A program made the position numbers and the translations under genes. Below the pieces are notes generated by a model, which worked only from the letters and a program-made list of their open reading frames with translations, was not told where the DNA came from and searched no databases. A stretch of 64,000 bases of DNA from Saprospiraceae bacterium (GTDB lineage: Bacteria; Bacteroidota; Bacteroidia; Chitinophagales; Saprospiraceae). Location: contig JADJJL010000001.1 in the NCBI GenBank assembly GCA_016710265.1, positions 859,553 through 923,552 of the forward strand, read 5' to 3'. This document shows positions 3,675-30,040 of this stretch, piece after piece; position 1 is the first letter of the stretch; every line of letters starts with the position of its first letter.

Positions 3675-3731
3675 CCAAACGAAAATAGATAAATAGAACC
3701 TAAATTTGAGATTAATTTAATAGAACATAAG

Positions 3732-4883: not shown

Positions 4884-4913
4884 TCCAAAAATGCTGTTTA
4901 AAGAAAACAAATT

Positions 4914-7324: not shown

Positions 7325-7371
7325 AAATATAATTTAGGCAAAGTTAAAAAAATATTTAAACTACTTAAAAA

Positions 7372-7947
7372 ATGAATACAAATTTTGAAATAATCAGCCA
7401 AATAATACGTCATCGTAGATCGGTTTATCCTCATCAATTTAAACCAGGCTTAATAGCTGAAACATTGATAGACAAGATCTTAGAAAATGGCATTTGGGCC
7501 CCAAATCATAAAATGACTCAACCTTGGAGATATATTAGAATTCAAGGAAAAGCATTACTAGAATTATCTAATTTCTTGGCCGACTGGTATAAATCCAATA
7601 CTCCAGCTGATCAATTTTCCGAAATGAAATGGAAAAAAGCGGGAGAGCGGCCGCTTCAAAGTGCCTATGTTTTGGCCATCTGCATTTCAAGAAGCCCGGT
7701 TTCGGTTGTACCTGAATGGGAGGAAACGTCAGCTTTGGCCATGTCTGTGCAAAATATTTGGTTAAGTTGTGCAGCTTTAAATATTGGAGCATATTGGAGC
7801 ACCCCGGGAGCTATAAAAGGAATTGGTTCCTTATTAAATCTGACTGGACAAGAGGAATGTTTGGGTTTATTTTACATGGGATGGGCCCCGGACCTGATTC
7901 CTGATTCCACACGAATTCCTGTAGATAAAATATCCAGGTATCTATGA
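7372..7947 (+). CDS. Nitroreductase-family protein
   Basis: RRSVYPHQF and APNHKMTQPWRY motifs typical of FMN nitroreductase-fold proteins; length about 190 aa. Confidence 0.8.
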   Translation: MNTNFEIISQIIRHRRSVYPHQFKPGLIAETLIDKILENGIWAPNHKMTQPWRYIRIQGKALLELSNFLADWYKSNTPADQFSEMKWKKAGERPLQSAYVLAICISRSPVSVVPEWEETSALAMSVQNIWLSCAALNIGAYWSTPGAIKGIGSLLNLTGQEECLGLFYMGWAPDLIPDSTRIPVDKISRYL

Positions 7948-10995: not shown

Positions 10996-12207
10996 TTATA
11001 GACCTTTCCGCATTTTAACGGAAAAATCTTTTTGACTTCCGTCACGAAGAATCTTTACTTGAATCGTTTCTCCCACCTTGGTCAGGCCTATCTCTTTGAT
11101 GAGATCGTCATAATTTTTAACCGATTTACCGTTAATGCCGACGATGACATCTTTGGGGCGTAAACCTGCATATTTAGCGGAGCTGTTATCCTCAAGTTCT
11201 TCTATCACAACACCCTCTTTTGAAGAAAGGTTTAATTCTTTTAAATAATTTTCATCAATTTCTGCAACAACAACGCCCAGGCGTCCTCGTTCAAAGCTCC
11301 CATTGGCAATCAGTTCTTTTACAATCTTGTTCATTAGGTTTACCGGAATGGCAAAAGAATAGCCGTTAAAATATCCGGTTTTAGTAGCGATGGCAGAGTT
11401 AATTCCAACTAGCCTTCCCATCCCATCTACTAAAGCACCACCGCTGTTTCCAGGGTTTATGGCTGCATCGGTTTGGATAAACTCTTCAATACCTTTTTGT
11501 GCACTGTTATAGCTGTTACCAAATCTATTATAAGGATCTCTGTTTTCATCAATAATATTTAGATCTCTACCTTTTGCAGAAACAATACCGGCAGTTACCG
11601 TAGATGTTAAATAACCAAATGGATTACCCACAGCCAACACCCATTCTCCCACTTTAATAAGGTCTGAATTGGCCATTGGTAAGACCGGCAAACCAGTTTC
11701 TTCAATCTTAAGAACTGCAAGATCAGTCCTCGGATCATTTCCTATCTTTTCTGCTTTAAACTTTTTCCCGCTTTTTAAAATAACCTCTATTTCATCTGCA
11801 AATTCCACCACATGATTGTTGGTTACTATATAACCATCTGTAGAAATTATAACCCCACTTCCGCTTCCTTTTTGAGGTTGGAATCCAAAAAATTCTCTAA
11901 ACATCGGATGATTAAAAAAGGGATCACTTCCATAATACTGCTGCTCCTTTTCTTTCATTTTTTTCTGACTTTCCTGCGCATTTATTTGAACAACAACTTC
12001 CAAAGCTTTACTCGCTGACAAAGTAAAATCAGGACCGGTATTAAAAACAGGTAGTTTATTTACATTTGATTCGTCATTTGCAAATGTCGCATAATTTGTA
12101 TCAACTGCTTGTGTTGTAAAAAAATGTGGATTAAAATAATAAAAAAGACCAACTACCAAAAGCCCGCCAAAAGTACCAGCCATTAAATTTGATAATAGAT
12201 TTTTCAT
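10996..12207 (-). CDS. HtrA/DegP-family serine protease with one PDZ domain
   Basis: Catalytic triad contexts TNNHVV (His), DLAVLKI (Asp) and GNSGGALV (Ser). N-terminal hydrophobic anchor and a C-terminal PDZ-like region. Confidence 0.85.
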   Translation of the reverse strand: MKNLLSNLMAGTFGGLLVVGLFYYFNPHFFTTQAVDTNYATFANDESNVNKLPVFNTGPDFTLSASKALEVVVQINAQESQKKMKEKEQQYYGSDPFFNHPMFREFFGFQPQKGSGSGVIISTDGYIVTNNHVVEFADEIEVILKSGKKFKAEKIGNDPRTDLAVLKIEETGLPVLPMANSDLIKVGEWVLAVGNPFGYLTSTVTAGIVSAKGRDLNIIDENRDPYNRFGNSYNSAQKGIEEFIQTDAAINPGNSGGALVDGMGRLVGINSAIATKTGYFNGYSFAIPVNLMNKIVKELIANGSFERGRLGVVVAEIDENYLKELNLSSKEGVVIEELEDNSSAKYAGLRPKDVIVGINGKSVKNYDDLIKEIGLTKVGETIQVKILRDGSQKDFSVKMRKGL

Positions 12208-12331
12208 TTTAGTGTTTTATTTTCTTGATTAAAGACAAAAATAACGTTGCGACATTTTACGGAGTTGTTTCACAAAATCACTTTAACATAGTATTAACCC
12301 GAATAAAAATACCGTGCACTAAAGCCAATAA

Positions 12332-15300
12332 TTATCTTATCAAGCTGATGTCTCCCTGTAGTTCAACGGACACACCGTCTAGCCTTTTTGCCTTAAGATA
12401 AAATACAAATACCCCTGGACTGAGAAGGGTACTATTGAATCGACCATCCCAGCCGGATTGGTCATCATTGACTGGAAAATTAGAGTTTTCAAATACCAAT
12501 TCTCCCCATCTGGAATAAATTCTAAAAATATCAATCGTGGTGAAAGCCTGTGAACCCCAAACTGTTATTCGATCATTGATTTGATCTCCATTGGGACTGA
12601 AAACATTCGGCACAAAAATATCTCCCACTAAGTTGACTTTAAATTTTACTTCCAATATTATTTCACAACCATTTTCATCCAACAAACGCAATTTATAATT
12701 GGTATCTTGAATCGGATTAGCCTCAGGATTTAAGCAGTTGGTACAACTGAGCCCCTCTGCTGGACTCCATTCAATCAAACTTGGGGTAAAATTGATATCG
12801 GGTTTAAGTGTGATCTTTTCACCAAGAGATATAATTATTTCCGGGTTAAGTGAGGTCAATGGAATAAATGGATTCGGCAGATCCAATGTAAAAGACTTTA
12901 TACAATCCAAAGAATCCCTTACAAAAACCAGATATCTTCCGGGGGCTAAATTTTCAAATTTATTGATTTGAATCCAATTGTTTTGATCGTGTAAAGAATA
13001 CTCAAAAGGTGGAACTCCTGACAAGGGGTTTAATAGGATCATTCCATCGTGTATGCCATAACATAGAGATGGAACAATGATTGAAGCTGCATCAACGGTG
13101 TCCTTTCGTAAAAATGAGAGAATGATACTGTCGCAGCCAAATTGGTTTACAACAGTGTCTACATAACTTCCAGGTAGATCATAAGTATTGGTCCCAACCG
13201 TAATGCTTTGTTCTTCACAAATCAGGTAATTCTGGTTTTCAATTGAAGTTGGAAATATTTGTAAGTTTGTAGTTATGACACTATCACAACCTAACGCGGT
13301 AGTGAGCGTGTCCAGATAGTTACCTGAAACTAGGTATCTTTTTGCCCCTACTTCAAGATATTGCCCATTGCATAATTCTACATTTTGATGCATTGCTGCA
13401 GGAGGATTAAATTTTAAACTTGTACTTACAATGCTATCGCATCCTTGAAAACCGTTTAGTGTGTCTAAATACGTTCCTTCTAAATTATAAATGTTCCCAT
13501 TAAATGTAAATGACTGTCCACTGCACAATACAATATTTTGCTGGCTATTAATTTCTGCTTGGACATCCAAAATACTGACCACGAGACTATCACAACAATT
13601 GATGTTTTTGAAAAAATCAAAATAAGTACCTGAATTAAAATATACATTCCCATTGAAATAAAAACTATCTCGAGCACAAATGGATATTTGTTGGGTTACA
13701 GTATCTTGAAATCGTTGGTCTAAAATATTAAAACTCAAAGTATCAGAAGCGCAACCAAATTCATCTCTTGCAATAAGCTGATGAAGGCCTGGTGATAAAT
13801 TGTAAAAACCACTTTCACTAACCCATCTTTGTCCATCCAAACTATAATAATAAAAAGGGAAAGTGCCGGAAGCAGTAATGTGAATATAATTAGAGGGATC
13901 ACAGCAATTCATGGTCAATTTAGAAGAATCAATGTTTAATCCAAGTTTCCTTTTAAATTCTGAAATTTCAACATCTCTGAATACTTCGCATCCTAGCTCA
14001 TCTTTGGTGTAAATTCTATAAATGCCAGCTTGTAAATTATTAAAAATTCCATCCACATTCCAATTTAACTGATCCAAACTGTATTGGTAATTTGGTTTAC
14101 CACCAATCCCACTCATTACAATTATACCTAAATCCTTACAAGTAACAGATTGGGTAAAAATCAAACTATCCTTCAATGGAATTCTGACATCCCTTAGATC
14201 AATAATTCGGGGGGTAATGCAATTACCCAATTTGGCATAAATGGTTACACTTTGTCTGGCTCCAATTTCAAATTTAGATTGATAGCTAAACTGGATTCCA
14301 TCCAAAGAATACTCAGCACCCGGAAAATCCTGTGGATTAAGCACCTCCAATAAAATTACATCCAATGCTGCACAAGAGTCCAATAAACTGGCTTTCACCT
14401 TAAGATCGGCCTGTTTGACTTCTATGGTTACAGTATCCTGATAAACCAAACCACATTGGTCATTCATTTTAAGAATATAAGTGGTAGTTTGATCGGGTGT
14501 GAAAATTGGATTTCGAATGGTTGGATTAGAAATACCGGTTACTGGAGTCCAATCATATTTACTAAATACAGAGGGTGCTGAAAGTTGGATGGATTCTCCC
14601 TGACAAATAATTTGATCCGGGATATTATTAATTCCTGTGATGTAATTTAAGCACACCTGATGCACATTGACTGCTCCACCAGTAGCAGAAGTAAAACCAA
14701 AAAATACATTGGGATCATTTAAAAAAATATCTTTCACCAGATCTACCCTCAAGCTCAATCTTCTATTGCAATCGACAAATACTTCAACAATTTTATTGGT
14801 CGCATCCCATCGGATGAGACCCTTGTGGAACATGCAATCTTCTGCATTTGCCAAAGTAGGAAAAATCCCTACAGGGCCTGCCAGGTTATCAGCTGTATTG
14901 TGTCCGACTGTTCCATTTCGCATGATGGCGAGGTGATCGTAAAATGGATCGTTATTCTCATTGTTGTCCCAGGTATCAAATTCAATTGCAAGACTTGGTT
15001 GGATTCCTTGGTATCCTATTCCTCCTCCAAAAACACCAATGGAAGTTGAAATAGGTTGCAACACAAATGCCAAACCATCTGCACCATTCCTGTCAATACA
15101 GCCTAAATTAAAATCAAAAAAAACATCAAAGCTGTTGTTAAAATCTACTTTATCTTCATACCACATGGAACCTGCTTGATTGTTAAGTGCCTGTGTCAAT
15201 CTGTAACAATCACCTCCTGTATTAATTGCATCATTGTTGAGTATAAAATTTTTATTGGTGGTAGATTTACAACTGTCCGGAACAAAAACACTGATGGTAT

Positions 15301-17055: not shown

Positions 17056-20000
17056 ATGTATCAAGCATTATCAGAGAGTGTTCGATCTAAAGTCTACCTT
17101 CACCATGAAGGAGAAAACCAGGAATCTGTGCTGGTTAAGACTTCTGCGCCTTCAAGACTTTCAAAAACAGAACTTAAAAATGAATTTGAGGTAACAAAAA
17201 AATTAAATCTTTCAGGTATCAGGAAACCTGTAAGAGAAAGTATCTTTCAAAACAGAGATGGCTACTATTATGAATATATTGATGGAATAGGTTTAAATGA
17301 ATTTATATTAAAAAATAGGATTGAACTAAAAACCTTTATTAAAATAGCAAAAGAAATCTCTAAAACACTTTCCGAAATTCATGAAAAAGGTTTTATACAT
17401 TTAAGAATCAACAGTCACAATATAATCATTCATCCACCAGATCTAAATATACATGTCATTGATTTTAGCTTAGCTAGTTCGATAAAAGAAAATAAAACCA
17501 TCAATTTTGCAGAATGGGGATTAGAATTAAGTTATATCGCACCTGAACAAACCGGACATCTCAATAAAAAAGTAGATCAACGTACAGATTTGTATTCTTT
17601 AGGGATTGTTTTATATGAATTGTGGAGTGGATTTCCACCTTTTAGAAATGAAAATGCGGCTGATACCATTCATGATCATCTTGTAAAACTACCGACATCG
17701 TTGGACCGTATTAGACCCGAAACTCCTCCATTTATCAACCTAATAGTTGAAAAACTACTAAGTAAAAATCCTGATACCAGGTACCAAAGTGCCAAGGGGT
17801 TACTGGCTGACATTTTAGAATGTGAGGAAATAATTAATTCAGGTTTGTCATTTGTCCAATTTAAACCAGGTAAAGTTGATTTACCTACCACTTTAAATAT
17901 TTCCACAGGTTTCTATGGAAGAAAAAAAGAATTTAAAAAGCTATCTAATTTATTTGACGAAGTCCATACAAGACATAAAAACAATGCTATAATTCTCATC
18001 ACAGGGCAAAATGGAATTGGAAAATCAAGACTTGCAATTGAATTTTCAAAATATTGTACAGAAAATTCCGCTATTTTTTTATCCAGCAAATTAAACCAGC
18101 ATGGTGTCCAACTGCCCAACCAGGTAGTCATCGATGCTTTAAAAAATTTGGCAATTTACATTCTTTCTCAAACCGATGAATCATTGGCAGAATGGAAAAA
18201 GATTATTCAAAATTCTGTAGCAGAAATTGGACAACTCTTAATAGACTTAGTGCCAGAATTTGCTTGGATTTTAGAAGCTCAGCCCAAACTCCCAAGTTTG
18301 AATGTCAATCAAGCAGAGAGTCGCTTAAATTTTCTCTTTTACAAAATCATAGAAGGGGTGGCCAATGAAAATCACCCTGTGGTACTGTTTGTAGACGATA
18401 TGCAATGGATGGACAATGCTTCTTGGAAAAATCTTGAAATACTACTAAATGGTAAAGGGCTCTCTAATTTTATTCTTTTAGGTGCTTATTGGCAAGAACC
18501 ATCGTCAGACCATCATGAATTTATAGAAAATTCTACCAGACTCATCAACAAAAATTTACAAACTGAACAAATACAACTTCAAAATTTAAGTCAGGAAGAA
18601 ATTGCAGAGTATTTATCTGATTCATTTGAAATGGAAAATTTAAATACTTTGATACAATTGGCTTATCGAAGGACCGGTGGAAATCCATTCTATCTGCAGA
18701 AATATCTGGACAGCTTGTACGTCCAAAAACATTTAGAATTTAATACTGGGTCTCAAAAATGGATCATACACTCTGAAGAAATCATTGAAATAGAATGGGC
18801 TGAAAATGTGATCAGTTATCTAAATGAACAAGTTAAACTGTTGCCAACAGATTGTATGAGAATATTTGGCATAGCGTCATGCCTTGGTTATCATTTTAAC
18901 AAAACTGATCTTTTAGAAATATCGGAAATATCTATCAATGAATTAAACAGAATATTAAAAATATTGGTGGACAACAATTTACTAAATGACAAATCCAATG
19001 AGGAGTACCATTTTGAACATGAAACATTGCACAGTACTGCATTACAATTATTGGATTCTTCTAAAAAGGAATTGATTCATCATAAAATTGCAAATAAATA
19101 TTTATCCATACTTAATAATAAAGAGACAGGGTCATTACTTTATTATGTAACTGATCAATTTAATAAAAGCAAGAGTTGTATAACTACCGCAGAAAGATTG
19201 GAAGTGGTTCAACTAAATTACCAGACCGCATTAAGTGCAAAAAATGCAACCGATTATGAACTTGCTTTCAAGCATTATACCACGGCCATTTCGATGCTTG
19301 AAAAAACTGATTGGAACAAACACTATGCATTAATTCTAAATTTGCACAATGAAGCCGCAGAATGTGGAATGAAAATAGGTCAATACATTGTAGCAAATAA
19401 TTTCCTTGAAATCTCTCTACAAAATGCAAAAGATTCATTTGACCGAATACTTGCCCATGAAATAAAATTGCTACACTTAATCGAGACCCATCAATTTTCA
19501 TCTTCTATAGAATACTTATTAAAAGTACTAGATGAGATTGGATACAACGTTAAAAGAAATCCAAGTAAATTGGAAATTCTAAAAGAATTTCTAAAAGTAA
19601 AATTTATGTTTATTGGCAAAAAACCACAAGATATCAGTCACTTACCAGAAATGACTGCTCAAGCGCCTTTGGCATTTATTAAACTCACTACCATAGCAAC
19701 GGTTGCCATTTTTGGAAATGCTCCTGATATCTTACCCATAATTAATTTTAAGCAGGTATACCTTTCCTTGAAATATGGCAAATCCACATACCTGCCCTAT
19801 GCAATAGCAGCGCATGGCTTCGCTATTACTGCATTTATGGGAGATTTAGACAAAGGTCATGATCTTGCCAAATCAGCTTTACAAATGACAGAAGAAGAAG
19901 ATTTACCATTAATCAAAGCAAAGGTTATGGTGATCTATTATGGGTTTCTATCCTATTGGAAAAATTCCATTGTCGAAAGTAAAGCTCCGCTCAAACTTGC

Positions 20001-22107
20001 ATATTCCATTGGGAGGCAAACAGGTGATTTGTTGTATGCAACTTTTGCATTGTCTTTTCACAATGAAATAAGATTTTATACCGGAGATAATCTCACAGAG
20101 TTACTTACAGATACGACCAATGATTGTTTAACCATTAAAAATCTAAAACAAAATTTAGTTTACATCATTTCAGAGTACCAAAGGCAAATGATTATTAATT
20201 TGGTGCAAGCAAATGAAAATCCATGGATTTTTAAAAATGAGGGATTTGATGAATTATACGCCATCCAGGAATTAAGCAATCTGGGTGATAAAGCAAGCAC
20301 ATTTGGTCTTTATCATAATAAAATGCTTATTGCTTGCTTATTTAATCAATATGAAATAGGTGAAGAATACCACAGACAAGCATCAACCTACGAAGATGAA
20401 TCCACTGCCCGTCAAATAAATTATTCAGCTTATTTATTCTATTCTACAATTACACAGATTAAAACAATTTCTTCAAATGAGTCTAAAATAAGAAATGAAA
20501 TACTAAAAAGTATCCAGAAAAAAATAAAAAAACTGCAATCTCATTCTCACTTCGCTCCTCAAAATTTCATGAACAAATATTTACTTTTGCTTGCCTTGTT
20601 AGATGAATATGAGGGAAGAATGAACCAAGCAATGGGACGTTTTTTAGAATCCATTAAATACGCCAAAGAAGCCGGCTTTATTTGTGAAGAAGCCATTGGT
20701 CGAGAATTGTTTTCCCAATTCTTATTGAAAGCGGGTGAAAAAGAATATGGTGAAATGATGTTGAATGTAGCCTACCAATGCTATAATAGTTGGGGCGCAA
20801 TTAATAAATGCCAACAGTTGGTTAAATTATTTCCACAAATTTTGGGAAATCAAGCAGATTTTGGTAAAGAAAGTACTATCGCTTCCTTTCAAAATATTTT
20901 TGATCTAAACACTATTATAAAATCCAATAAAATACTTTCTTCTGAAAATAATTTGGACAGTCTTCTTACCAAAATGTTAGAGCTTGTCATGACCAACGCA
21001 AGCTGCAGTAAAGCCATTATAATTATTAAAGATTCAAAAGGGCAATTGGTTCCTTACGCATTGGGATTACAAGAAGAAATAAGTATTCTCAAAAATGAAA
21101 TTCATCCATTGACCATTCTTGTTCCCCAATCATTGATTTTGTATGTGTCTCATTCTAAAACTGAATATGTAAGTCCCAATTTAAGTTTGGATAAACAATA
21201 CAATTTGGACACTTATGTAAAAGCGACCAATCCAATCTCTGTTTGTTGCATACCTATTATAACCAATCAGGCCCTATTGGGAATTATTTATCTTGAAAAT
21301 AATCTTGCGGAAAATGCATTTGATAAAAAAAGAGTGGAATTCTTTAAAACCATTACCTCTCAACTGGCAATTTCTATGGAAAATGTAGCACTCTATTCTG
21401 AAATGGAGATCAAAGTGACTGAAAGAACCTCCCAGTTACAACAAAAAAATCAAGAATTAACCGTAGAAAAAAATAAATCCGATGAATTACTATTAAATAT
21501 TCTTCCGGAAGAAATAGCCACAGAATTAAAGGAAAATGGTAAATCTATTGCAAAGAAATATGAACAGGTGACCATACTTTTTTCTGACATTAAAGATTTT
21601 ACTTTAATTTCTGAACTTATGGAAGCAGAAGAATTGGTTTCCGAGTTGGATACATGTTTTAAAAAGTTTGATGAAATTATAATAGAATTTGGACTGGAGA
21701 AAATAAAAACTGTAGGTGACGCATATCTTGCAGTTGGTGGTTTACCGGACAACAATAAAGCCACAGCATTAGATGTTGTTACAGCTGCATTCAAAATGGT
21801 TGAATTTACTTCACAAAGAGTAAACGATCGAAAAAAACAAAACAAACCTGGTTTTGAAATTCGTGTTGGTATCAATACCGGTTCCGTCGTATCAGGAATT
21901 GTAGGTATTAAAAAATTCCAATTTGACATTTGGGGAAATGCAGTCAACCTGGCAGCAAGATTAGAACAAAGTTCAGAACCAGGTCGAATAAATATTTCTT
22001 CCTCTACTTATGAACTAATTAAAAAGACTTTCAGCTGCGAGTATCGTGGAAGAATTCCAGCCAAAGGGATTGGAGATATTGATATGTATTTTGTGAATGA
22101 TCAATAA
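17056..22107 (+). CDS. Multidomain signalling protein: protein-kinase-like (probably inactive) domain, AAA/STAND ATPase, helical-repeat region, GAF domain and class III adenylate/guanylate cyclase
   Basis: Kinase-like fold with VLVK (beta3 Lys), NEFEV (alphaC Glu), SYIAPEQ and DLYSLGIVLYE. Walker A GQNGIGKS (18004-18027) and Walker B VVLFVDDMQW. GAF-like segment ending GIIYLENN. Cyclase domain (about 21568-22095) with FSDIKDF, KTVGDAYLAVGG and FDIWGNAVNLAARLE. Confidence 0.85.
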   Translation: MYQALSESVRSKVYLHHEGENQESVLVKTSAPSRLSKTELKNEFEVTKKLNLSGIRKPVRESIFQNRDGYYYEYIDGIGLNEFILKNRIELKTFIKIAKEISKTLSEIHEKGFIHLRINSHNIIIHPPDLNIHVIDFSLASSIKENKTINFAEWGLELSYIAPEQTGHLNKKVDQRTDLYSLGIVLYELWSGFPPFRNENAADTIHDHLVKLPTSLDRIRPETPPFINLIVEKLLSKNPDTRYQSAKGLLADILECEEIINSGLSFVQFKPGKVDLPTTLNISTGFYGRKKEFKKLSNLFDEVHTRHKNNAIILITGQNGIGKSRLAIEFSKYCTENSAIFLSSKLNQHGVQLPNQVVIDALKNLAIYILSQTDESLAEWKKIIQNSVAEIGQLLIDLVPEFAWILEAQPKLPSLNVNQAESRLNFLFYKIIEGVANENHPVVLFVDDMQWMDNASWKNLEILLNGKGLSNFILLGAYWQEPSSDHHEFIENSTRLINKNLQTEQIQLQNLSQEEIAEYLSDSFEMENLNTLIQLAYRRTGGNPFYLQKYLDSLYVQKHLEFNTGSQKWIIHSEEIIEIEWAENVISYLNEQVKLLPTDCMRIFGIASCLGYHFNKTDLLEISEISINELNRILKILVDNNLLNDKSNEEYHFEHETLHSTALQLLDSSKKELIHHKIANKYLSILNNKETGSLLYYVTDQFNKSKSCITTAERLEVVQLNYQTALSAKNATDYELAFKHYTTAISMLEKTDWNKHYALILNLHNEAAECGMKIGQYIVANNFLEISLQNAKDSFDRILAHEIKLLHLIETHQFSSSIEYLLKVLDEIGYNVKRNPSKLEILKEFLKVKFMFIGKKPQDISHLPEMTAQAPLAFIKLTTIATVAIFGNAPDILPIINFKQVYLSLKYGKSTYLPYAIAAHGFAITAFMGDLDKGHDLAKSALQMTEEEDLPLIKAKVMVIYYGFLSYWKNSIVESKAPLKLAYSIGRQTGDLLYATFALSFHNEIRFYTGDNLTELLTDTTNDCLTIKNLKQNLVYIISEYQRQMIINLVQANENPWIFKNEGFDELYAIQELSNLGDKASTFGLYHNKMLIACLFNQYEIGEEYHRQASTYEDESTARQINYSAYLFYSTITQIKTISSNESKIRNEILKSIQKKIKKLQSHSHFAPQNFMNKYLLLLALLDEYEGRMNQAMGRFLESIKYAKEAGFICEEAIGRELFSQFLLKAGEKEYGEMMLNVAYQCYNSWGAINKCQQLVKLFPQILGNQADFGKESTIASFQNIFDLNTIIKSNKILSSENNLDSLLTKMLELVMTNASCSKAIIIIKDSKGQLVPYALGLQEEISILKNEIHPLTILVPQSLILYVSHSKTEYVSPNLSLDKQYNLDTYVKATNPISVCCIPIITNQALLGIIYLENNLAENAFDKKRVEFFKTITSQLAISMENVALYSEMEIKVTERTSQLQQKNQELTVEKNKSDELLLNILPEEIATELKENGKSIAKKYEQVTILFSDIKDFTLISELMEAEELVSELDTCFKKFDEIIIEFGLEKIKTVGDAYLAVGGLPDNNKATALDVVTAAFKMVEFTSQRVNDRKKQNKPGFEIRVGINTGSVVSGIVGIKKFQFDIWGNAVNLAARLEQSSEPGRINISSSTYELIKKTFSCEYRGRIPAKGIGDIDMYFVNDQ

Positions 22108-22146: not shown

Positions 22147-23595
22147 TTATTTAACATTGGTCAATCCCCATATGAAATCTGCATTGTAACCATAGCCCCT
22201 CGTGGTAGTATCGCTGGTCAGAAATCTTGCATTGCTATGACAACCCATACAACTGGAGTTCTTTTGTTCAAAAGTTTCTAGGACTGTATTTGCCATAATA
22301 TTAGGTGTATATCCTTCTCCCGAAGTAAACAAAGTAGGAAGAAAGGGCCATTGTGTCCCAACCAATTGATAATACTGCCAAACGGAGTTGGAGTCAACCA
22401 TTCTTATTTTTTGTCGATAGCGATCATTTATTGCATTTGTGCTCTGGGCGATTGGATTAATTCTAACAATTTGATGAGGTTGATTCCACAATTCCTTGTT
22501 TTGAGTCTTCTTCGGATTTGGTTTGTTAATTCGATTCGTATCTATATTCTCCGGATTAAAATAACTATATTTGACATTAGGATCAATATCAGGTAATCCG
22601 TCGGAGTTTAGGCCCGGTGCATTGTCAATATGCTCAAAACTACTCCATATCCATTGGGTAGCCTCTGAAACTTTCTGCACAATGTGCAAACCTACCAATC
22701 CCATTTCAACCGTTTGATTTGAATCATTCAGAACATTGCGTATATAATATCTTGATTTGTCATCTTTATCAGTCATGATTCTCCAAGCAGATTTAATGAT
22801 GGAGGAGTTTGGATTTTTAAGAAAATAATAATCACCACCCATTAGTTTAAAGCTTGAGTCTACTGTATTACCGATTGAAAAATAGGCTCTCCTATATCGT
22901 TCTACTATATTTACTTGGGTATCATTTTCAATCACCTTAAGTCCTCTTGTAACTGAAGGCCAATTTTTTACAAATTCTTTTTGACCTTCTAAATTATATA
23001 GTTTTGCGTTCGTGACGTATTCGTATGCTTCACGATTGTAAAATAATTGATATAGGGTTGTATTTCTATTTTGGTCAATTAAAATATGATGATCCGCTTC
23101 CGTTTTTTCTAAAGTATTTAATTTTGGAATGGTTCTCAATTCTGAAGCAATATAAGTGAGTAAAGAATTTCCTGTCACTTGTATGTGTTGATCCCAGCTC
23201 TCAGGAATTTTACCATCCTTGGTATAAAGTTTATGACTTGGCATCCAATATTCAAATACCACATGGTTGGATTTAAGTGCAAAACTTGAATTGGTATCCG
23301 GTGTACCATCCAAATTGGCTGGCCAACATGTAGCTATGAAAGTGCGCCAGGAAAAATCATCCGCGTTGTTTTGCAAATACAACACTAGGCTGTCCTTATT
23401 CTGGAAATTTGGAACATTTTGTATCAAAGGTAAATTCAAATCTGAGGGTATATTATAAAGCCCATAAAATGGATTTCTAATACCCATCAAGTTTGGACTA
23501 TTAAAATTTGTATTCATTTTGCATTGTCCAAGCAAAAGTATGGCAAGTACAATAGCGATCATCATGTGTGGAATGGCTTTAAAGTTTGATTTCAT
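22147..23595 (-). CDS. Secreted or lipoprotein-like protein of unknown function with a C-terminal CxxCH motif
   Basis: N-terminal signal sequence (MMIAIVLAILLLGQC). Single CMGCH motif at nt 22237-22251. Only 12 nt downstream of the preceding gene. No family recognised with confidence. Confidence 0.6.
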   Translation of the reverse strand: MKSNFKAIPHMMIAIVLAILLLGQCKMNTNFNSPNLMGIRNPFYGLYNIPSDLNLPLIQNVPNFQNKDSLVLYLQNNADDFSWRTFIATCWPANLDGTPDTNSSFALKSNHVVFEYWMPSHKLYTKDGKIPESWDQHIQVTGNSLLTYIASELRTIPKLNTLEKTEADHHILIDQNRNTTLYQLFYNREAYEYVTNAKLYNLEGQKEFVKNWPSVTRGLKVIENDTQVNIVERYRRAYFSIGNTVDSSFKLMGGDYYFLKNPNSSIIKSAWRIMTDKDDKSRYYIRNVLNDSNQTVEMGLVGLHIVQKVSEATQWIWSSFEHIDNAPGLNSDGLPDIDPNVKYSYFNPENIDTNRINKPNPKKTQNKELWNQPHQIVRINPIAQSTNAINDRYRQKIRMVDSNSVWQYYQLVGTQWPFLPTLFTSGEGYTPNIMANTVLETFEQKNSSCMGCHSNARFLTSDTTTRGYGYNADFIWGLTNVK

Positions 23596-23607: not shown

Positions 23608-24636
23608 TTATTGTTTTTTAAATCCAAGATAGGCTTTCAATTTAGGCGGAAAGTTCGGTAGATAAGTGACTTTAAAATGGCTAAACCAAATTTTAAAATC
23701 ATTTGAAACATGATGTTGATTTAAGAAATAAGAGTGGACCAAATTGCTTGAAAATTCATTTTGACAATTAAACAAGTCTTGAAACTGATTGAAAAAATGA
23801 ATGGCTCTTAGAGGATCATCAAAATAACATTCAATACCAATTTTATCAAGTATCTCTTCTCGAATGTCTATGTCCAAATCCACTTGGCTTGCAAATTGTG
23901 CTGAAAGTGAAAGAATATTCATCAAAGTGCCATCCTGAACATATTTGTATCCTATTGATTGCAGAAATAAAGGAATATTATTAGGACCTAATTTCTGAAT
24001 AAATAAACGCAAGCCAGATTCGCCCCTTGCATGCATCATTCCAATTTGAGATATGACGGCTTGTTCTCCTAATATTTTATAACATTCTAATAATTTTTTT
24101 AAACTATCTGACTGAATACTTTGATTTGTAACCGTTTCAAATATTTCTTTCGTCGCTAATACAATTTCTAGTTTGTTGGCTTTCAAATTCGGTCCATAAA
24201 AAAAACTGAATGCAGGGTTGTTTGTTTGAATATCATTCTTATCAAATTCAAGCCAAATATTTTGAATGGTCGATTTCCATTTGATTTCCCAGTTAGTTTG
24301 AAATTTTATAAGAGAATCCAATGATTGGATATTTTTTGGATGCTTCCAGATTTTATTTTGAAAAGGAAATAAGAAATTTCTAAATTGTATAGGAGAATGA
24401 AAACAAATTAAAAAATCGGGTTCCAATTTAGTTTCTTGAAGATGAAACTCATATCCAAAATAATCACTAACAGAAAGAGGTACCCCTTCTAATAAGGATA
24501 TTACTTCATTAAAATAATCTTCATTAATATGTTTAAAAGGTCCAAAATTTTTAAATTTTTCTAAAACATGGACCAAGCATAAACCTACAAAAGCAGGATT
24601 ATCTTCCTTTTTTGTAATATCAGGTAGCGACACCAC
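23608..24636 (-). CDS. Hypothetical cytoplasmic protein (342 aa), possible five-repeat alpha-beta-beta-alpha barrel
   Basis: GTG start (no in-frame ATG for about 200 codons), 39 nt downstream of the small peptide gene. No signal peptide, TM segment or nucleotide-binding motif. Five pairs of beta-strand-like segments occur at a spacing of about 58-68 aa. Confidence 0.6.
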   Translation of the reverse strand: MVSLPDITKKEDNPAFVGLCLVHVLEKFKNFGPFKHINEDYFNEVISLLEGVPLSVSDYFGYEFHLQETKLEPDFLICFHSPIQFRNFLFPFQNKIWKHPKNIQSLDSLIKFQTNWEIKWKSTIQNIWLEFDKNDIQTNNPAFSFFYGPNLKANKLEIVLATKEIFETVTNQSIQSDSLKKLLECYKILGEQAVISQIGMMHARGESGLRLFIQKLGPNNIPLFLQSIGYKYVQDGTLMNILSLSAQFASQVDLDIDIREEILDKIGIECYFDDPLRAIHFFNQFQDLFNCQNEFSSNLVHSYFLNQHHVSNDFKIWFSHFKVTYLPNFPPKLKAYLGFKKQ

Positions 24637-24675: not shown

Positions 24676-24945
24676 TTATGTGGTGGTATTCCAGTAGGCC
24701 TGATTTTGATCTGGCGTAGTATTCCAATAAGCCGAGTTTGTATCAGGTGAATGATTTGCCATATATGCATTGTAAATGGCATTGATGTCTTCTATATCCG
24801 ACCCAGATAGATCAGAAGTTGGGGGCATATCATATTTTGCAATATTGATAGCTTCTTCAAGCGAAACAGCCAATACCTCAGATGGATACTGTGATTTCAT
24901 GTCTGCTGGCAATACATCGCCAATTGTTAAATCTGATTTTTCCAT
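24676..24945 (-). CDS. Small acidic protein (89 aa) with duplicated C-terminal AYWNTT motif; candidate modified-peptide precursor
   Basis: ATG preceded by an A-rich leader and a TATATTTG box. No signal peptide. It has many Asp/Glu and few Lys/Arg. The C-terminus is ...NSAYWNTTPDQNQAYWNTTT, and the two motif copies use different synonymous codons. Confidence 0.55.
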   Translation of the reverse strand: MEKSDLTIGDVLPADMKSQYPSEVLAVSLEEAINIAKYDMPPTSDLSGSDIEDINAIYNAYMANHSPDTNSAYWNTTPDQNQAYWNTTT

Positions 24946-24965: not shown

Positions 24966-24973
24966 CAAATATA
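24966..24973 (-). promoter_or_regulatory. Candidate -7 promoter box (TATATTTG on minus strand) for the three-gene operon
   Basis: Plus-strand CAAATATA is TATATTTG on the minus strand, matching TAnnTTTG. It lies about 20 nt upstream of the ATG at 24945. No clear -33 element. Confidence 0.3.
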
Positions 24974-25117
24974 CTTTATAAACTTATAAATCTATTTGAA
25001 TAAATTATTATGGTGTTAATCTATTGATATTCAATTGATAAAATAATTTATTAAGTCATTTATATTGGAATAACCGGAATCCATTGGAAAATAAAAGTAA
25101 ATCTTATGAAAGAAGAG

Positions 25118-25191
25118 TAGCGTGGGGGAGGCTTGAACTCCCGACCTTGCGATTATGAATCGCACGCTCTGACCAGCTGAGCTACCACGCC
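25118..25191 (-). tRNA. tRNA with CAU anticodon (elongator Met or lysidine-modified Ile2)
   Basis: The reverse complement folds as a 74-nt cloverleaf: GGCGTGG-TA-GCTC-AGCTGGTCA-GAGC-G-TGCGA-TTCATAA-TCGCA-AGGTC-GGGAG-TTCAAGC-CTCCC-CCACGCT-A. The 1:72 pair is G:U. The anticodon stem lacks the three G:C pairs of initiator tRNA. CCA is not encoded. Confidence 0.9.
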
Positions 25192-25415: not shown

Positions 25416-25820
25416 ATGAAAAAGCGATTTAATCTTTCTATTGGATACTTGCAAGCTGTAGTTTTAGGAATAACCCTCAGTTTGTTTCTGACTTCTTGTC
25501 TTAGACAAACCAAAAATAATGATGTTCTTAAAATTAGTACCCAATCTAAAAAGCAAAGTTCCAAAAAAATAAGTCAGGTTTCAAAGAAAGCTTTATCCAA
25601 GAAAAACAATATCAATATTGCAAAAAATGATACTGTATTAATAATAAATGAAGAAATAGAAGTCGCGAATCAAGTAGAACAAGAAAGTCAAATGACTTCA
25701 GATTCTTCTATCGTGAATAATATTGATTATTCAGATAGTATAGAACTTGAAAACTATTTTGCCGAACTAGAAAAAGTAGAAGTGGACAGTTCAGATTTTG
25801 TTTTAATCAAAGATTATTAA
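25416..25820 (+). CDS. Hypothetical lipoprotein
   Basis: Signal peptide with lipobox-like LFLTSC. Low-complexity Ser/Lys/Asn/Glu-rich mature part. The 3' end overlaps the convergent bamA stop by 4 nt. Confidence 0.5.
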   Translation: MKKRFNLSIGYLQAVVLGITLSLFLTSCLRQTKNNDVLKISTQSKKQSSKKISQVSKKALSKKNNINIAKNDTVLIINEEIEVANQVEQESQMTSDSSIVNNIDYSDSIELENYFAELEKVEVDSSDFVLIKDY

Positions 25821-28312
25821 TCTGGTTCAAATCCAAGGATAAAGTTAAATTGGGCGTAACTTTTAATGGGCGCTCCTTGATCAGACAACCATGGTTTATC
25901 AAAACCCCAGCCATAATCAAAACCCAACAATCCAAACATCGGAAGAAATACCCTTGCTCCTATACCCGCAGCTCTTCGCAGATCAAATGGATTGTATTCT
26001 TTAAATGAATACCAAGAGTTACCCGCTTGATAAAAGGTGGTTATAAAAATAGTAGCACTTGGATTTAATGAAAGTGGATATCTAAGTTCTGCTGTAAATT
26101 TGTTAAATATGGTTGCAAAACCTTTGTCTACTCTATTGTTGTAGTCATTGGTGGTTCTATAAGTGATATCATCTACATCGTAGCCCCTCATTGAAACAAT
26201 ATCACGTCCAAGTAGACCGAAAGCCTGATTGTTTAGTCCATTCCCTCCCATTTGTACTCTTTCAAAAGGTGGCGCACCCAATTTCTTATTGTAATATCCA
26301 AGAAAACTCATTTTTGCGTTAAAGCTAAAAACCAACTTGTCTATTATATTGTAATACCATTCTCCATCAAATCTCCATTTATGATATTCGACCCATTTAT
26401 ACCTTTCTTCGGATGATATGCTATCATAATTAATAGATCTTCCCAATAGTGAATAAGGCAATGTCAATTGTCCGGATAAACTTAAACGGGAGCCAGTACG
26501 TGGATAAAGTGGTTCGTTGACCGTACTTCTTGTAATGGTGTGTTTTAAAGAAAAATTATAAAAAGTTCCATTGGCCACCCCAAACTGCGGGTTGTCCACC
26601 AAATTGATTCTCTCAAGATTCATGGTGGTGGATCTTATAAAATTATCATCCGGCCATCTCAATTGTGAGCCAAGAGCTGAGGACAATCTCATGCTGGTAA
26701 ACTTTCCACCTTGAATAGTAGTCTGATCAAAAGATGAATAACTGGCTGCCACGGTAAAAGAATTGGGTTTTTTCCCTCCCAACCAAGGTTCTGTAAATGA
26801 GAAGTTGTAAGTTTGAAAAAACTTACCATTGCTTTGCGCCCTTAAGGATAATTTTTGACCATCACCTTGAGGAAGCGGATTCCAAGAAGACTTTTTAAAA
26901 ATATTGCGTGTTGAAAAATTATTGAAAACCACCCCTAGAGTCCCAATGAGCCCAAAAGCACTAAACCCTGCTGACAATTCCAATTGATCCGATGGCCTTT
27001 CTTCTACTTGATATTCTACATCTACAGTTCCACGCCTTGGGTTCACAGGAGTATTGATACCCATGGATTCAGGGTTAAAAAATCCAAGTGCCATGATGGC
27101 TCTTTGTGATCGAATAATATCAGAGCGGCTGAATTTTTGTCCCGGTCTCGTCCTTACTTCTCTTCGAACTACATGCTCATGGGTGCGGTCATTTCCTTTG
27201 ACGATGACCCGATCGATGGTCGCTGGAGGGCCCTCAGTGATTCTTATCTCAATATCTACTGAATCACCAATAATACCACTTTCTACAGGTTCAGCTCTGA
27301 AAAATAAATATCCTTCATCCATATAAAGACTACTTACATCTCTTCCATCCTGACTAAAACTCAATCTTTTACTTAGTAAATCCTGATCATACACATCACC
27401 TTTTTGGATAGATAAGACATTTTGAATCTGATCTTCCGTATAAAGAGAATTTCCTTTTATGACAATATTGCGAAAATAATATCTGCGTCCTTCATCCAGG
27501 ACAATGTGAATTCTTAGCCTTTTTTGGCTTTTGCGCCAAACACTGTCTCTGATGATTTGCGCGTCTCTATAACCTTTAATGTGATAATAATCGATCAATT
27601 TTTGCTTATCGTCTCTATAGAGATCTTCTTTGTATTTTGATTTGGAGATCACCTGCCAGACACGTTTGGTCTCTTTCATTTTCTTACGAAGCTTCCAGGA
27701 TTTGATTTTTTCATTTCCCTCAAAAGTGATATTGGAAATTTTAAGTCTAGGGCCTTTATCGACGTCAATTAAAAGTCTAACCGAATTCTCTTTTTTCTCA
27801 TCATTAAATTCAAAAATATTGACGCGGCAATCCCAAAATCCCTTGTCTATATAATGATTTTTAATGCGGTATACGATGTTTTCTTTTACATCATCTGTCA
27901 CAATACTGTTTTTGGACAGTTGACTATTTACCAGCTCATTTAACTCTTCATGGGCTCCTTTTTTAACGCCTTTAAATGAATGCTTGGAATATCTTGGTTT
28001 TTCTGTTACAAGAATTTCAATGGTGGCAGCATCTCCATAAATCTTGCTAAATGAAATTTCTACATTGCTAAAAAGTTTCTGCTTATAAACTGCTCGAATG
28101 GCTTGGGGAATCTCAGATCCGGGGACCGTCACTTTTTGGCCTGTCCTTAAACCTGAGATTGCAATAATGGCTTTTTCATCCGTAAACTTATTACCTGTGA
28201 CTGTAATTCCAGTTATTTCGTAGGTTTTCTTGGTGTATTCCAGAAATTTATTTTCCTGGGCAAAGCTTGCAAAACTTGCAAGAAAAGCAATGGTCAAAAA
28301 GATACTTCTCAT
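25817..28312 (-). CDS. bamA: Outer membrane protein assembly factor BamA (POTRA repeats plus Omp85 barrel)
   Basis: Signal peptide MRSIFLTIAFLASFASFAQ, repeated POTRA-like segments, and a C-terminal beta-barrel ending in the aromatic-rich NFILGFEPD. The start is set to the ATG at 28312; the track ORF begins at an upstream TTG at 28345. Confidence 0.9.
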   Translation of the reverse strand: MRSIFLTIAFLASFASFAQENKFLEYTKKTYEITGITVTGNKFTDEKAIIAISGLRTGQKVTVPGSEIPQAIRAVYKQKLFSNVEISFSKIYGDAATIEILVTEKPRYSKHSFKGVKKGAHEELNELVNSQLSKNSIVTDDVKENIVYRIKNHYIDKGFWDCRVNIFEFNDEKKENSVRLLIDVDKGPRLKISNITFEGNEKIKSWKLRKKMKETKRVWQVISKSKYKEDLYRDDKQKLIDYYHIKGYRDAQIIRDSVWRKSQKRLRIHIVLDEGRRYYFRNIVIKGNSLYTEDQIQNVLSIQKGDVYDQDLLSKRLSFSQDGRDVSSLYMDEGYLFFRAEPVESGIIGDSVDIEIRITEGPPATIDRVIVKGNDRTHEHVVRREVRTRPGQKFSRSDIIRSQRAIMALGFFNPESMGINTPVNPRRGTVDVEYQVEERPSDQLELSAGFSAFGLIGTLGVVFNNFSTRNIFKKSSWNPLPQGDGQKLSLRAQSNGKFFQTYNFSFTEPWLGGKKPNSFTVAASYSSFDQTTIQGGKFTSMRLSSALGSQLRWPDDNFIRSTTMNLERINLVDNPQFGVANGTFYNFSLKHTITRSTVNEPLYPRTGSRLSLSGQLTLPYSLLGRSINYDSISSEERYKWVEYHKWRFDGEWYYNIIDKLVFSFNAKMSFLGYYNKKLGAPPFERVQMGGNGLNNQAFGLLGRDIVSMRGYDVDDITYRTTNDYNNRVDKGFATIFNKFTAELRYPLSLNPSATIFITTFYQAGNSWYSFKEYNPFDLRRAAGIGARVFLPMFGLLGFDYGWGFDKPWLSDQGAPIKSYAQFNFILGFEPD

Positions 28313-28551
28313 GTATTTTCTATTAAAGCAAGGACTATAACGCAAAATCAGATATTTGATTATTGCGCAAAGGTATCAATAAAGATCATGAAAGTGGCAA
28401 AATGTTGCGAAGCTGATCATATTGATTATCAGAACAATGCGTTAATTAACGCTATTTTTTATTGGTTTTTTATTTAGATTTCAATCATTTTGAATTAGGT
28501 TTGGCTTTAAGCTCATTTTATTAACTCAAGTATCTTTACTTTTGCAAAAAT

Positions 28552-29220
28552 TTGTATTTGAAGATTCTTGCAAAAATAATATCGATTCTATTTCATCCTT
28601 TGTTTGGATTTCCTTACACTTTTTTAATGCTGTTATGTCTTAAACCACATTGGTTTAGTATCAGACATTTTAGCGAAGCAGGAATGCTTTTAATATTGGT
28701 AGTTATATACACCTGTATCATACCTATGATTGCGATTGGAATGATGAAGTTTGTTGGTTTGATTAAAAGTTTTGAATTATCAGAAAAAACGGAAAGAATA
28801 TTGCCTTTGATAGTCTGTCTAATATTTTATCTTTGGATGTATATTAACATGAAACAAGATACCTCTCTACCACCTGCTTTTCTGGCATTGTTGTTATCTT
28901 GTATCATTGCAATAAGTTTGGCATTTGTCATTAACAACTGGATTAAAATCAGTTTACATGCTCTGGTAATGGGAGCTATACTAGCGTTTTGGTTGAAGAT
29001 TAGATTTGGAGATTCAACTTCAACCGATCATTATTTTAGATTTACGGAAGATGTGGTCAGTTCATTTCATTTGAATCATTGGCTTTCTATCTGGTTATTT
29101 CTCTGCGGATTGGTGATGAGTTCAAGGTTGATTTTATCAGCCCACAATCGCACTGAAATTTATTTAGGTTTTGTTACTGGAATCGTTGCAATTTTGCTGG
29201 GATTTTCACATTGGAATTGA
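28552..29220 (+). CDS. Integral membrane protein, possibly a degenerate PAP2-superfamily phosphatase
   Basis: About 6 hydrophobic helices. The C-terminal SSRLILSAHNRTE resembles the PAP2 SRx5Hx3D motif with D replaced by E. TTG start is uncertain, because a TACTTTTG box ends only 8 nt upstream. Confidence 0.45.
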   Translation: MYLKILAKIISILFHPLFGFPYTFLMLLCLKPHWFSIRHFSEAGMLLILVVIYTCIIPMIAIGMMKFVGLIKSFELSEKTERILPLIVCLIFYLWMYINMKQDTSLPPAFLALLLSCIIAISLAFVINNWIKISLHALVMGAILAFWLKIRFGDSTSTDHYFRFTEDVVSSFHLNHWLSIWLFLCGLVMSSRLILSAHNRTEIYLGFVTGIVAILLGFSHWN

Positions 29221-29221
29221 T

Positions 29222-30040
29222 ATGAATGAATTAAAAAATAAAATAGAACAAATCTGGGATAACAGAGAATTGCTCAACCAGAATGAAAGCAAAGAATTGG
29301 TCCGCCATGTCATTGCTGAATTGGACAATGGGCATATTCGTGTGGCGGAACAAATCAGTCAAGGCGAGTGGAAAGTGAATGATTGGATTAAGAAAGCAAT
29401 TCTGATGTATTTTCCAATTTCAGAAAATAAAACAATCCATGCCGGAGATTTGAAATTTTTTGATAAAATTCCCACTAAAACTGAATTTGAAAAAATAGGT
29501 GTGAGGGCCGTTCCTCATGCCATAGCCAGATATGGATCATTTATTGAAAAGGGGGCCATTCTAATGCCTTCTTATGTCAATATAGGAGCGTATGTGGGGA
29601 GTGGAAGTATGGTCGATACCTGGGCCACAGTAGGTTCTTGCGCTCAGATTGGAAAAAATGTGCATTTGGCTGGTGGTGTAGGAATTGGAGGAGTATTGGA
29701 ACCACCCCAAGCGCAACCCAATATCATAGAAGACGATTGTTTTATTGGATCTAGATGTATCGTTGTAGAAGGTACTATTATAGAAAAAGAATCTGTATTG
29801 GGAGCGAATGTAGTGATCACTGCTTCCACACATATCATTGATGTAACAGGTTCTGAGCCAGTGTATTTTAAGGGAAGAGTTCCTTCCAGGTCTGTCGTAA
29901 TTCCTGGTAGCTATACGAAAGAATATCCTGCTGGCAAGTATCAAGTACCATGCGCGTTGATCATTGGAAAACGTAAGGAAAGTACTGATAAGAAAGTTTC
30001 ACTCAACGATGCTTTGCGTGATTATGGAATTGGACAATAA
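29222..30040 (+). CDS. dapD: 2,3,4,5-tetrahydropyridine-2,6-dicarboxylate N-succinyltransferase
   Basis: Hexapeptide-repeat left-handed beta-helix region (GAYVGSGSMVDTWATVGSCAQIGKNVHLAGGVGIGGVLEP) with a DapD-type N-terminal helical domain. The start is set to ATG 29222 (272 aa); the track ORF starts upstream inside the previous gene. Confidence 0.9.
   Translation: MNELKNKIEQIWDNRELLNQNESKELVRHVIAELDNGHIRVAEQISQGEWKVNDWIKKAILMYFPISENKTIHAGDLKFFDKIPTKTEFEKIGVRAVPHAIARYGSFIEKGAILMPSYVNIGAYVGSGSMVDTWATVGSCAQIGKNVHLAGGVGIGGVLEPPQAQPNIIEDDCFIGSRCIVVEGTIIEKESVLGANVVITASTHIIDVTGSEPVYFKGRVPSRSVVIPGSYTKEYPAGKYQVPCALIIGKRKESTDKKVSLNDALRDYGIGQ

Follow-up and report, generated by a model that had tools for sequence, protein, structure and literature searches.

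A conserved four-gene module

The DNA analyzed here (the window) is a stretch of 64,000 nt from contig JADJJL010000001.1 of a Saprospiraceae bacterium (positions 859,553 to 923,552). On its minus strand it carries a small open reading frame (ORF) with an ATG start (24676..24945), which encodes an 89-aa acidic protein, a putative precursor or substrate of the type that gives rise to ribosomally made peptides that are modified after translation (RiPPs). The next gene on this strand (23608..24636), 39 nt away, encodes a 342-aa cytoplasmic enzyme, putatively a leader-dependent alpha-beta-beta-alpha tryptophan prenyltransferase like MppC and the prenyltransferase (P) domain of NctPC. After a further 12 nt lies the gene (22147..23595, minus strand) of a 482-aa exported protein with a lipoprotein-type signal (LLGQC; hydrophobic residues 3 to 29) and, near the C terminus, the sequence CMGCH (residues 449 to 453; 22237..22251, minus strand), a CxxCH motif for attachment of heme c. 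On the plus strand, a gene at 17056..22107 encodes a 1683-aa cytoplasmic protein with the domain order Ser/Thr kinase, AAA_16 (STAND), GAF, HNOBA, and adenylate/guanylate cyclase (Pfam matches to Pkinase, AAA_16, GAF, HNOBA, and Guanylate_cyc); it has no credible transmembrane (TM) segment, and its gene converges with the other three, with 39 nt from stop to stop. A preliminary description of this DNA, made from its letters alone, had spoken of a tight three-gene operon of unknowns. The spacing agrees with this, but the unit comprises four genes, the kinase/cyclase gene included, and the neighbors of the small ORF are no longer complete unknowns.

The proposed linkage of the small ORF to its 342-aa and 482-aa neighbors was found throughout: the order small ORF, 342-like gene, 482-like gene was kept in 12/12 distinct Bacteroidota loci (the window, L001 = L006, L002 = L004, L003, L005, L007, L008, L084, L085, L095 = L096, L097, and L098 = L099). 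Carriers were Bacteroidota metagenome-assembled genomes (MAGs) labeled Saprospiraceae, Owenweeksia, Ilyomonas, Chitinophagaceae, or Bacteroidia. Across these loci the second gene encodes 325 to 354 aa and the third 481 to 534 aa, and the end of the 342-like gene runs 4 nt into the 482-like gene in L001 and L002. An orthologue of the kinase/cyclase gene was adjacent in all 12 loci, in one of two arrangements: convergent downstream (the window, L003, L084, L095, and L097) or divergent upstream (L001, L002, L005, L007, L008, L085, and L098). Its copies in L005 and L007 lie at truncated contig edges and were located by tblastn. Genes beyond the four varied from locus to locus (MreB/PBP2, GH3/MscS, peptidase S8, Rho, and a transposase among them), except in L003, a close relative of the window, with which it has BamA-like and succinyltransferase-like genes in common on one flank. 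Neither a protease or exporter (including ABC/PCAT types) nor a response regulator was conserved among the 12 loci.

Two side observations concern these loci. In L008 (3194-11369), which belongs to a Chitinophagaceae MAG, frameshifts break the kinase gene and the 342-like and 482-like genes into 2 to 4 ORFs each; they are either long-read assembly errors or signs of decay of the module. In the window, the right flank contains the gene of a BamA-like 842-aa outer membrane protein (25817-28345, minus strand), whose POTRA matches were read from the L003 counterpart, and a tetrahydrodipicolinate succinyltransferase-like gene (29171-30040, plus strand), judged by the Pfam matches of its L003 counterpart; this synteny was common only to the window and L003.

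The small protein and its two AYW cassettes

The 89-aa protein ends in NSAYWNTTPDQNQAYWNTTT, which holds two AYWNTT cassettes, at residues 72 to 77 (24732..24715, minus strand; GCT TAT TGG AAT ACT ACG) and at residues 83 to 88 (24699..24682, minus strand; GCC TAC TGG AAT ACC ACC); W74 and W85 are the proposed acceptors. As the preliminary description had reported, the copies are written in different synonymous codons at these coordinates: 4/18 nucleotide positions differ, all of them synonymous. A degenerate A-Y-W-N pattern, GCNTAYTGGAAY, had two matches in the 64-kb window (0.16 expected), both being the cassettes, and 0/100 shuffles gave two or more. The protein is indeed strongly acidic (14 D+E versus 3 K+R), with neither a signal peptide nor a TM segment and no 19-mer hydrophobic enough to reach a Kyte-Doolittle value of 1.6. 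Searches of Pfam and NCBIfam with it returned zero families at E ≤ 1.

Homologues, for which the preliminary description had proposed a search, were found in 13 clusters (88 to 91 aa; 50 to 99% identity). The peptide alignment comprises 14 sequences, to which all counts out of 14 refer. S71-A72-Y73-W74 and A83-Y84-W85 were invariant in 14/14, which confirms the claim of a conserved peptide motif, and the C-terminal repeat with its two Trp-containing cassettes was the most conserved part of the protein. Every homologue had exactly two cassettes, of the form (S/N)AYW(N/D/S), and the spacer was conserved as well (consensus SAYWN(K/T)(S/T)xDxNQAYW(N/D)(K/T)). Whether cassette number varies against a conserved leader had been posed as a check; it is fixed at two, and the whole 89 aa are conserved, including in the N-terminal two-thirds the segments LTIGDvLP, VLnVsLxEAxnIA, and MPPTSDLSxxD(I/V). 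Glycosylation at the N-T-T sequon, also suggested at the outset, has lost its footing, since the sequon is variable and is replaced by NKS, DKN, or NKG in homologues.

In codon alignments from seven loci, synonymous sites of the small gene were saturated (proportion of synonymous differences, 0.67 to 1.06), and the ratio of nonsynonymous to synonymous change (dN/dS) was 0.16 to 0.17 between the window and distant loci (computable pairs) and 0.03 for the closest pair. The gene is real, conserved, and under strong purifying selection, because it has 13 homologue clusters, invariant AYW cassettes, and dN/dS values of 0.03 to 0.17. A chance ORF or annotation artifact, which its shortness and lack of a database family could have suggested, is refuted by the homologues, the saturated synonymous change with dN/dS of at most 0.17, the synteny in 12 loci, and a promoter-like motif, and we give it practically no credence. 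The motif, TATATTTG (24966..24973, minus strand), lies 21 nt upstream of the ATG and has the form TAnnTTTG, the established consensus of Bacteroidota-type −7 promoters. It recurs in L003 at equal distance and is not conserved in remoter loci. A tRNA-Met (CAT) gene (25117-25191, minus strand) lies directly upstream of this promoter region.

An acidic stretch behind a Pro-rich one (MPPTSDLSGSDIEDI) contains L46-x4-I51 (24793..24810, minus strand), which is reminiscent of the L(X)4L motif in the leaders of precursors of the NHLP (leader peptide akin to nitrile hydratase) and Nif11 types; L46 was invariant and position 51 was I or V in 14/14 peptides. The Nif11 and NHLP leader models (PF07862, TIGR03798, TIGR03793, and PF02979) were unmatched by the peptide at E ≤ 1, in agreement with the view that the leader, if it is one, is of neither type. 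When the peptide family was aligned by hhalign with NHLP precursors and with MppE, the precursor modified by MppC, this stretch was chosen as the best local match in both cases, so that the L(X)4L regions came into register, yet at a probability below 1%; homology to either was dropped for this reason, leaving a likeness of layout only.

A G-G pair stands about 9 residues ahead of the first cassette in 8/14 homologues. Its carriers are the non-Saprospiraceae peptides (L001, L002, L005, L007, L085, and L098; alignment columns ~64 to 72); the window's clade has ANH(S/D)P at that place. The pair could be a vestigial or an alternative double-glycine site. Together with the two tandem cassettes and the spacer between them, it is what one would look for in a classical secreted multi-core antimicrobial RiPP, from which the leader would be cut and two short YWNTT-type peptides exported. 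We consider such a product very unlikely, given the constant cassette number and conserved spacer, the absence of G-G from the window's clade, a core much better conserved than antimicrobial RiPPs usually have, and the finding that no peptidase or ABC/PCAT exporter was conserved in any of the 12 loci.

The 342-aa enzyme and its wider family

Standard annotation did not place the 342-aa protein. It had no match in Pfam, NCBIfam, or PDB sequences, even by a 130-sequence profile; searches of PDB sequences with profiles from 7-, 4-, and 130-sequence alignments, those for the 482-aa protein among them, gave no credible match; and family models and solved structures of the cyanobactin, Orf2, and DMATS enzymes were matched neither by the window protein nor by 130 family members. 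A word-indexed search found 3 matches, and a fused 342+482 profile found 4 close relatives of the 482-aa protein. By exhaustive HMMER search the family comprised at least 717 representative clusters (clusters at 50% identity) at E ≤ 1e-3, of which 249 were found at E ≤ 1e-10. The source names of 20 family clusters that were checked read "hypothetical protein" or gave the name of a fused domain.

Across 130 diverse members E63, D74, D132, E269, H320, K322, K334, and Y336 were invariant and W128, E130, R204, and R210 nearly so, an enzyme-like set of charged residues. An AlphaFold2 (AF2) model from a 4-sequence alignment gave five beta-hairpins alternating with helix pairs, with the invariant residues all on predicted strands at i/i+2 spacing, as expected for the lining of a barrel. 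This model is poor (predicted local distance difference test [pLDDT], 46), and Foldseek with it returned noise only (TM-score, ~0.1 to 0.17). A terminator-like hairpin within the 5' end of this ORF (24584-24597, minus strand) is not significant (one found versus 1.8 expected); if real, it could attenuate transcription and so raise the precursor:enzyme ratio.

A metagenome scan with the 7-sequence alignment led to loci of distant members of the family (23 to 26% identity), and there the gene upstream of the enzyme is a recognizable RiPP precursor. In L086, L091, L092, and L093, a small ORF with a nitrile hydratase-like leader lies directly upstream of the 342-like gene on the same strand; the NCBIfam NHLP model scored 62.7 bits for L093 (cutoff, 50.9) and gave E values of 5e-11 for L086 and 1e-12 for L092. 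The precursors of L086, L091, and L092 have an ...ELSD(E/D)QL(D/E)xVAGG site followed by a Gly/Ala/Val/Thr-rich core that ends in Trp. The C termini read ...GNGNW in L086, ...GRSW in L091 and L092, and ...NEYCWSE in L093. In L089, a precursor fragment (...EEQLENIAGG|FVSS...RRGW) is followed by a PoyD-type radical-SAM epimerase (360 bits versus a cutoff of 325) and then by the 342-like enzyme. Thus, NHLP/double-Gly precursors in five distant loci end in ...W or ...CWSE, and the window peptide has its tryptophans at positions 74 and 85 of 89. Since Trp is the common denominator of the family's precursors, Trp is the likely acceptor. The cluster of L086 also encodes a Trp-halogenase-like protein, YcaO, TfuA, and a flavin adenine dinucleotide (FAD) enzyme, and in L093 a papain-family cysteine protease and a chagasin-type inhibitor (3482-5745) lie just upstream of the NHLP precursor and the 342-like gene, the former possibly a leader protease accompanied by its own inhibitor.

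Some members of the family are fused to a second domain at the C terminus, a 2-oxoglutarate-Fe(II) (2OG-Fe(II)) oxygenase in P0058, P0122, and P0125 (whose cluster includes Leptolyngbya proteins) and a class II terpene cyclase in P0146 (Nostoc) and P0113 (Cerasicoccus). Residues 386 to 706 of P0146 match the solved cyclase MstE (E = 1.4e-69). Its residues 28 to 352 aligned with the window family by hhalign at 99.3% probability (E = 8.7e-21; 290 columns), the 342-aa family matched it by HMMER at E = 4.7e-15, and the invariant residues of the family are common to P0146 and P0113. By these profile comparisons, the 342-aa protein has, over its full length, a homologue in the N-terminal part of a prenyltransferase-cyclase fusion. 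P0125, P0173, and P0174 (Leptolyngbya; 586 aa), P0113, and P0146 are publicly named by their C-terminal domain only, as 2OG-Fe(II) oxygenase or prenyltransferase/squalene oxidase repeat, with the N-terminal 342-like domain unannotated; stand-alone members are called "hypothetical protein."

P0146 has the architecture of NctPC, reportedly described by Hubrich et al. (Chem 2024), in which a P domain is followed by a C domain like MstE, and the equation of P0146 with NctPC is by architecture only. The window protein differs from NctPC in that its P domain stands alone and no cyclase gene lies near it. NctPC is reported to be an enzyme that geranylgeranylates Trp with its prenyltransferase domain and then cyclizes the prenyl chain with its MstE-like cyclase domain (PMC13290415). 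MppC of Moorena producens is a soluble alpha-beta-beta-alpha prenyltransferase of >340 aa that C5-geranylates Trp82 of MppE (...EEELSDSELEAVAGG|ACWRWSG), and it is active only with the long Nif11-like leader attached, whose L(X)4L motif is required (PMC12715784). The two enzymes represent a family of soluble alpha-beta-beta-alpha peptide prenyltransferases that share little sequence with those of cyanobactins and that modify Trp close to the C terminus of long-leader precursors. A long, structured leader is nothing unusual in this family; relatives of MppC co-localize with Nif11 (87), LanM (76), and NHLP (9) genes, and PagF falls outside their similarity network (PMC12715784), which is dominated by cyanobacteria, myxobacteria, and proteobacteria. 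Further genes of the mpp cluster encode a terpene synthase, an oxygenase, and a Trp brominase (PMC11791876).

The resemblance to this system is close in several respects. MppC and the 342-aa protein are both soluble and similar in size, with an acceptor Trp (a proposed one for the 342-aa protein) a few residues from the C terminus of the substrate; the MppE leader and the 89-aa peptide each have an L(X)4L-type motif within an acidic stretch; and the mpp partners (terpene cyclase, oxygenase, and Trp halogenase) are the same functions that relatives of the 342-aa protein have as fusion partners or as neighbors. In contrast to mpp, the 89-aa peptide lacks a recognizable Nif11/NHLP domain and, in the window's clade, a Gly-Gly site; the window module has no lanthionine synthetase and hence no macrocycle before prenylation; there are two proposed acceptor cassettes; and the partner genes are those of the CxxCH protein and the kinase/cyclase. 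From the matching architecture rather than from direct alignment, we strongly infer that the 342-aa enzyme belongs to the family of MppC and the NctPC P domain. The segment W317-F-S-H320-F321-K322 (23671-23688, minus strand) has the W-x3-F spacing of MppC Trp336/Phe340, which is reported to engage the leader; this may be coincidence.

Other known systems were more remote. The cyanobactin prenyltransferases PagF, TruF, and KgpF have the same proposed fold class (alpha-beta-beta-alpha barrel with Mg2+) and prenylate peptide Trp/Tyr; unlike the enzyme proposed here, they act leader-free on excised cores, and they have no sequence-level match to the 342-aa protein. In srp/proteusin clusters, the C-terminal Trp of an NHLP precursor is brominated by SrpI (PMC10858898). 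L086 lies in a cluster of this proteusin type, with its Trp-ending NHLP precursor, Trp-halogenase-like gene, YcaO, and TfuA, whereas the window module has neither those tailoring genes nor an NHLP leader.

Candidate tryptophan prenylation and its partners

The small ORF has the generic order of a RiPP precursor, next to a putative tailoring enzyme, in 12/12 loci. We favor, as probable though far from assured, a RiPP-type pair of enzyme and substrate: the 89-aa protein would be bound at its conserved body by the 342-aa barrel enzyme, which would add a prenyl group to Trp in the AYW cassettes. The docking site would be the N-terminal two-thirds of the peptide, a conserved region that takes in the acidic L46-x4-I51 stretch. 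A prenyl diphosphate would be held by way of Mg2+ and of the acidic and basic invariants predicted to line the barrel (E63, D74, E130, D132, E269, R204, R210, H320, K322, K334, and Y336), and the indole of W74, of W85, or of both would then be alkylated. The translationally coupled CxxCH protein might perform or support a later oxidative step outside the cytoplasm, and the cytoplasmic kinase/STAND/GAF/cyclase might regulate the module or sense or act on its product; strict linkage is what suggests these last two roles. The Tyr that is invariant in this subfamily may serve recognition or a later step with the heme motif protein. Of the preliminary description's ideas, RiPP-precursor-like character is supported: the three computational checks that could have refuted it (homologues, conservation of the C-terminal repeat, and linkage to the neighbors) came out in its favor, and the ORF lies upstream of an enzyme whose wider family adjoins NHLP precursors. 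Release of multiple cores does not fit two invariable cassettes and the lack of a conserved protease or exporter. Its suggestion of prenylation at Tyr-Trp has gained from the homology of the neighbor to the domain of a prenyltransferase/MstE-cyclase fusion, with prenylation itself inferred.

Several points weigh against this assignment. For a leader/core precursor it is unusual that all 89 aa are conserved and that no leader protease or exporter is; the peptide matches no Nif11/NHLP model and aligns with NHLP precursors or MppE at a probability below 1%; and the 482-aa partner is exported, whereas the peptide has no export signal. On the enzyme side, placement with MppC/NctPC is by architecture and not by direct alignment, the model at a pLDDT of 46 does not demonstrate a barrel fold, and the residues that would face the lumen are more acidic than one expects of an aromatic prenyltransferase.

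The last of these points bears on whether the 342-aa enzyme modifies the cassettes by a chemistry other than prenylation, using another electrophile or a metal-dependent reaction of Tyr-Trp, with the heme protein completing a Tyr-Trp oxidation or cross-link. The barrel-lining invariants are rich in Asp/Glu (E63, D74, E130, D132, D255, D257, and E269), Tyr is invariant beside Trp only in the Bacteroidota subfamily, to which the obligatory CxxCH partner is also unique, and the fold is unconfirmed (pLDDT 46; Foldseek noise). We nevertheless regard such a chemistry as unlikely, because the invariants are common to the P0146 and P0113 fusions, so that a changed reaction would have to use the same catalytic set, and because acidic ligands are required for the one or two Mg2+ reported for cyanobactin-type prenyltransferases (PMC13290415). 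Four specific chemistries were considered and set aside: three-residue cyclophane/darobactin-type chemistry, as the module has no radical-SAM gene; P450 biaryl cross-linking, as it has no P450 gene; PalQ/ComQ-type prenylation, as it has no polyprenyl-synthase domain; and crocagin-type chemistry (IYW core), as PDB sequences gave no match to any solved protein.

The conservation of all 89 aa, beyond the tail, can also be taken to mean that the small protein is no substrate but folds and serves the kinase/cyclase as an adaptor or regulator, its AYW tail binding the STAND repeat domain, for example, while the 342-aa enzyme prenylates a small molecule. The cassette number fixed at two, the lack of a conserved protease or exporter, and the adjacency of the kinase/cyclase gene in 12/12 loci are in keeping with this. 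Yet in the wider family a Trp-terminated RiPP precursor in the same orientation directly precedes the enzyme, the two Trp-containing cassettes are the most conserved residues of the small protein, and a long structured leader is no anomaly in the MppC family (PMC12715784). An adaptor is, on balance, hardly a likely explanation, and substrate and prenyltransferase remain our preferred assignment for the two proteins.

The lack of a conserved protease or exporter and the strict coupling to the CxxCH and kinase/cyclase genes hint at a signaling or physiological role of peptide prenylation in environmental Bacteroidota rather than antibiosis. Conceivable, though in our view rather unlikely, is that the four genes form a self-contained Bacteroidota signaling circuit built on peptide lipidation. 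The small protein would be prenylated on one or both Trp and not released as an antibiotic, and it, or a fragment matured by the exported heme protein, would be the ligand, membrane-tethering partner, or substrate of the kinase/cyclase. If true, the circuit would couple RiPP-type chemistry directly to cyclic-nucleotide signaling and, though assembled from unrelated parts, would have its functional counterpart in the ComQXPA or RRNPP systems. ComQXPA of Bacillus comprises the prenylated-Trp pheromone ComX, the prenyltransferase ComQ, and the sensor kinase ComP. The likeness is one of genetic logic only, in that an acceptor-Trp precursor, a prenyltransferase, and a signaling kinase are encoded together. 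ComQ is trans-isoprenyl diphosphate synthase-like and not a barrel prenyltransferase, and no polyprenyl-synthase match was found in the window module; ComP is a membrane histidine kinase, whereas the window kinase is a cytoplasmic Ser/Thr kinase-STAND-GAF-cyclase with no conserved response regulator.

A ribosomal peptide with a leader-dependent barrel prenyltransferase is already known as a combination. New here are the different phylum, a precursor with two fixed cassettes and without a recognizable leader family, a module with no macrocyclase, protease, or exporter, and obligate partners not reported for such clusters, namely the exported CxxCH protein and the cytoplasmic kinase/STAND/GAF/cyclase. 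With this finding, leader-dependent barrel prenyltransferases, first reported in 2024-2025, would reach into a new phylum and a new type of precursor. The family of the enzyme domain is large yet invisible to Pfam and NCBIfam, and because it is unmodeled and, in the 20 clusters checked, labeled hypothetical or by a fused domain, genome-mining tools would miss such clusters.

The 482-aa protein had no match in Pfam, NCBIfam, or PDB sequences and fell into no described cytochrome family; its AF2 model reached a pLDDT of 31. It is putatively an exported mono-heme c-type protein because of its CxxCH motif and export signal. A scan of GTDB returned 138 relatives of its family, of which the best 80 were kept. 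They include proteins of Pseudomonas, Lysobacter, Bradyrhizobium, Rhizobium, Acidobacteriota, Verrucomicrobiota, and Planctomycetota at 25 to 30% identity. A single CxxCH was present in 79/79 family members, several Trp, His, Glu, and Lys positions were also invariant, and the N termini of these 79 were generally signal- or lipoprotein-like. None of the loci outside Bacteroidota had the small gene, a 342-like gene, or the kinase gene beside the 482-like gene. All-against-all clustering of the neighbors of this family was swamped by spurious high-GC ORFs. Spot checks turned up only a GMC oxidoreductase (Pseudomonas) and, in one Saprospiraceae locus, genes for MntP and a GSDH-like protein. In Pseudomonas salmasensis (L016), the stand-alone 482-like gene is followed by the gene of a 780-aa GMC/FAD oxidoreductase (11570-13912, plus strand), which hints at a redox partnership and is compatible with one without settling the matter. 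In three Bradyrhizobium loci (L059, L060, and L076; ~6540-7920), a second, weaker 482-like CxxCH paralogue lies about 2 kb upstream of the main gene.

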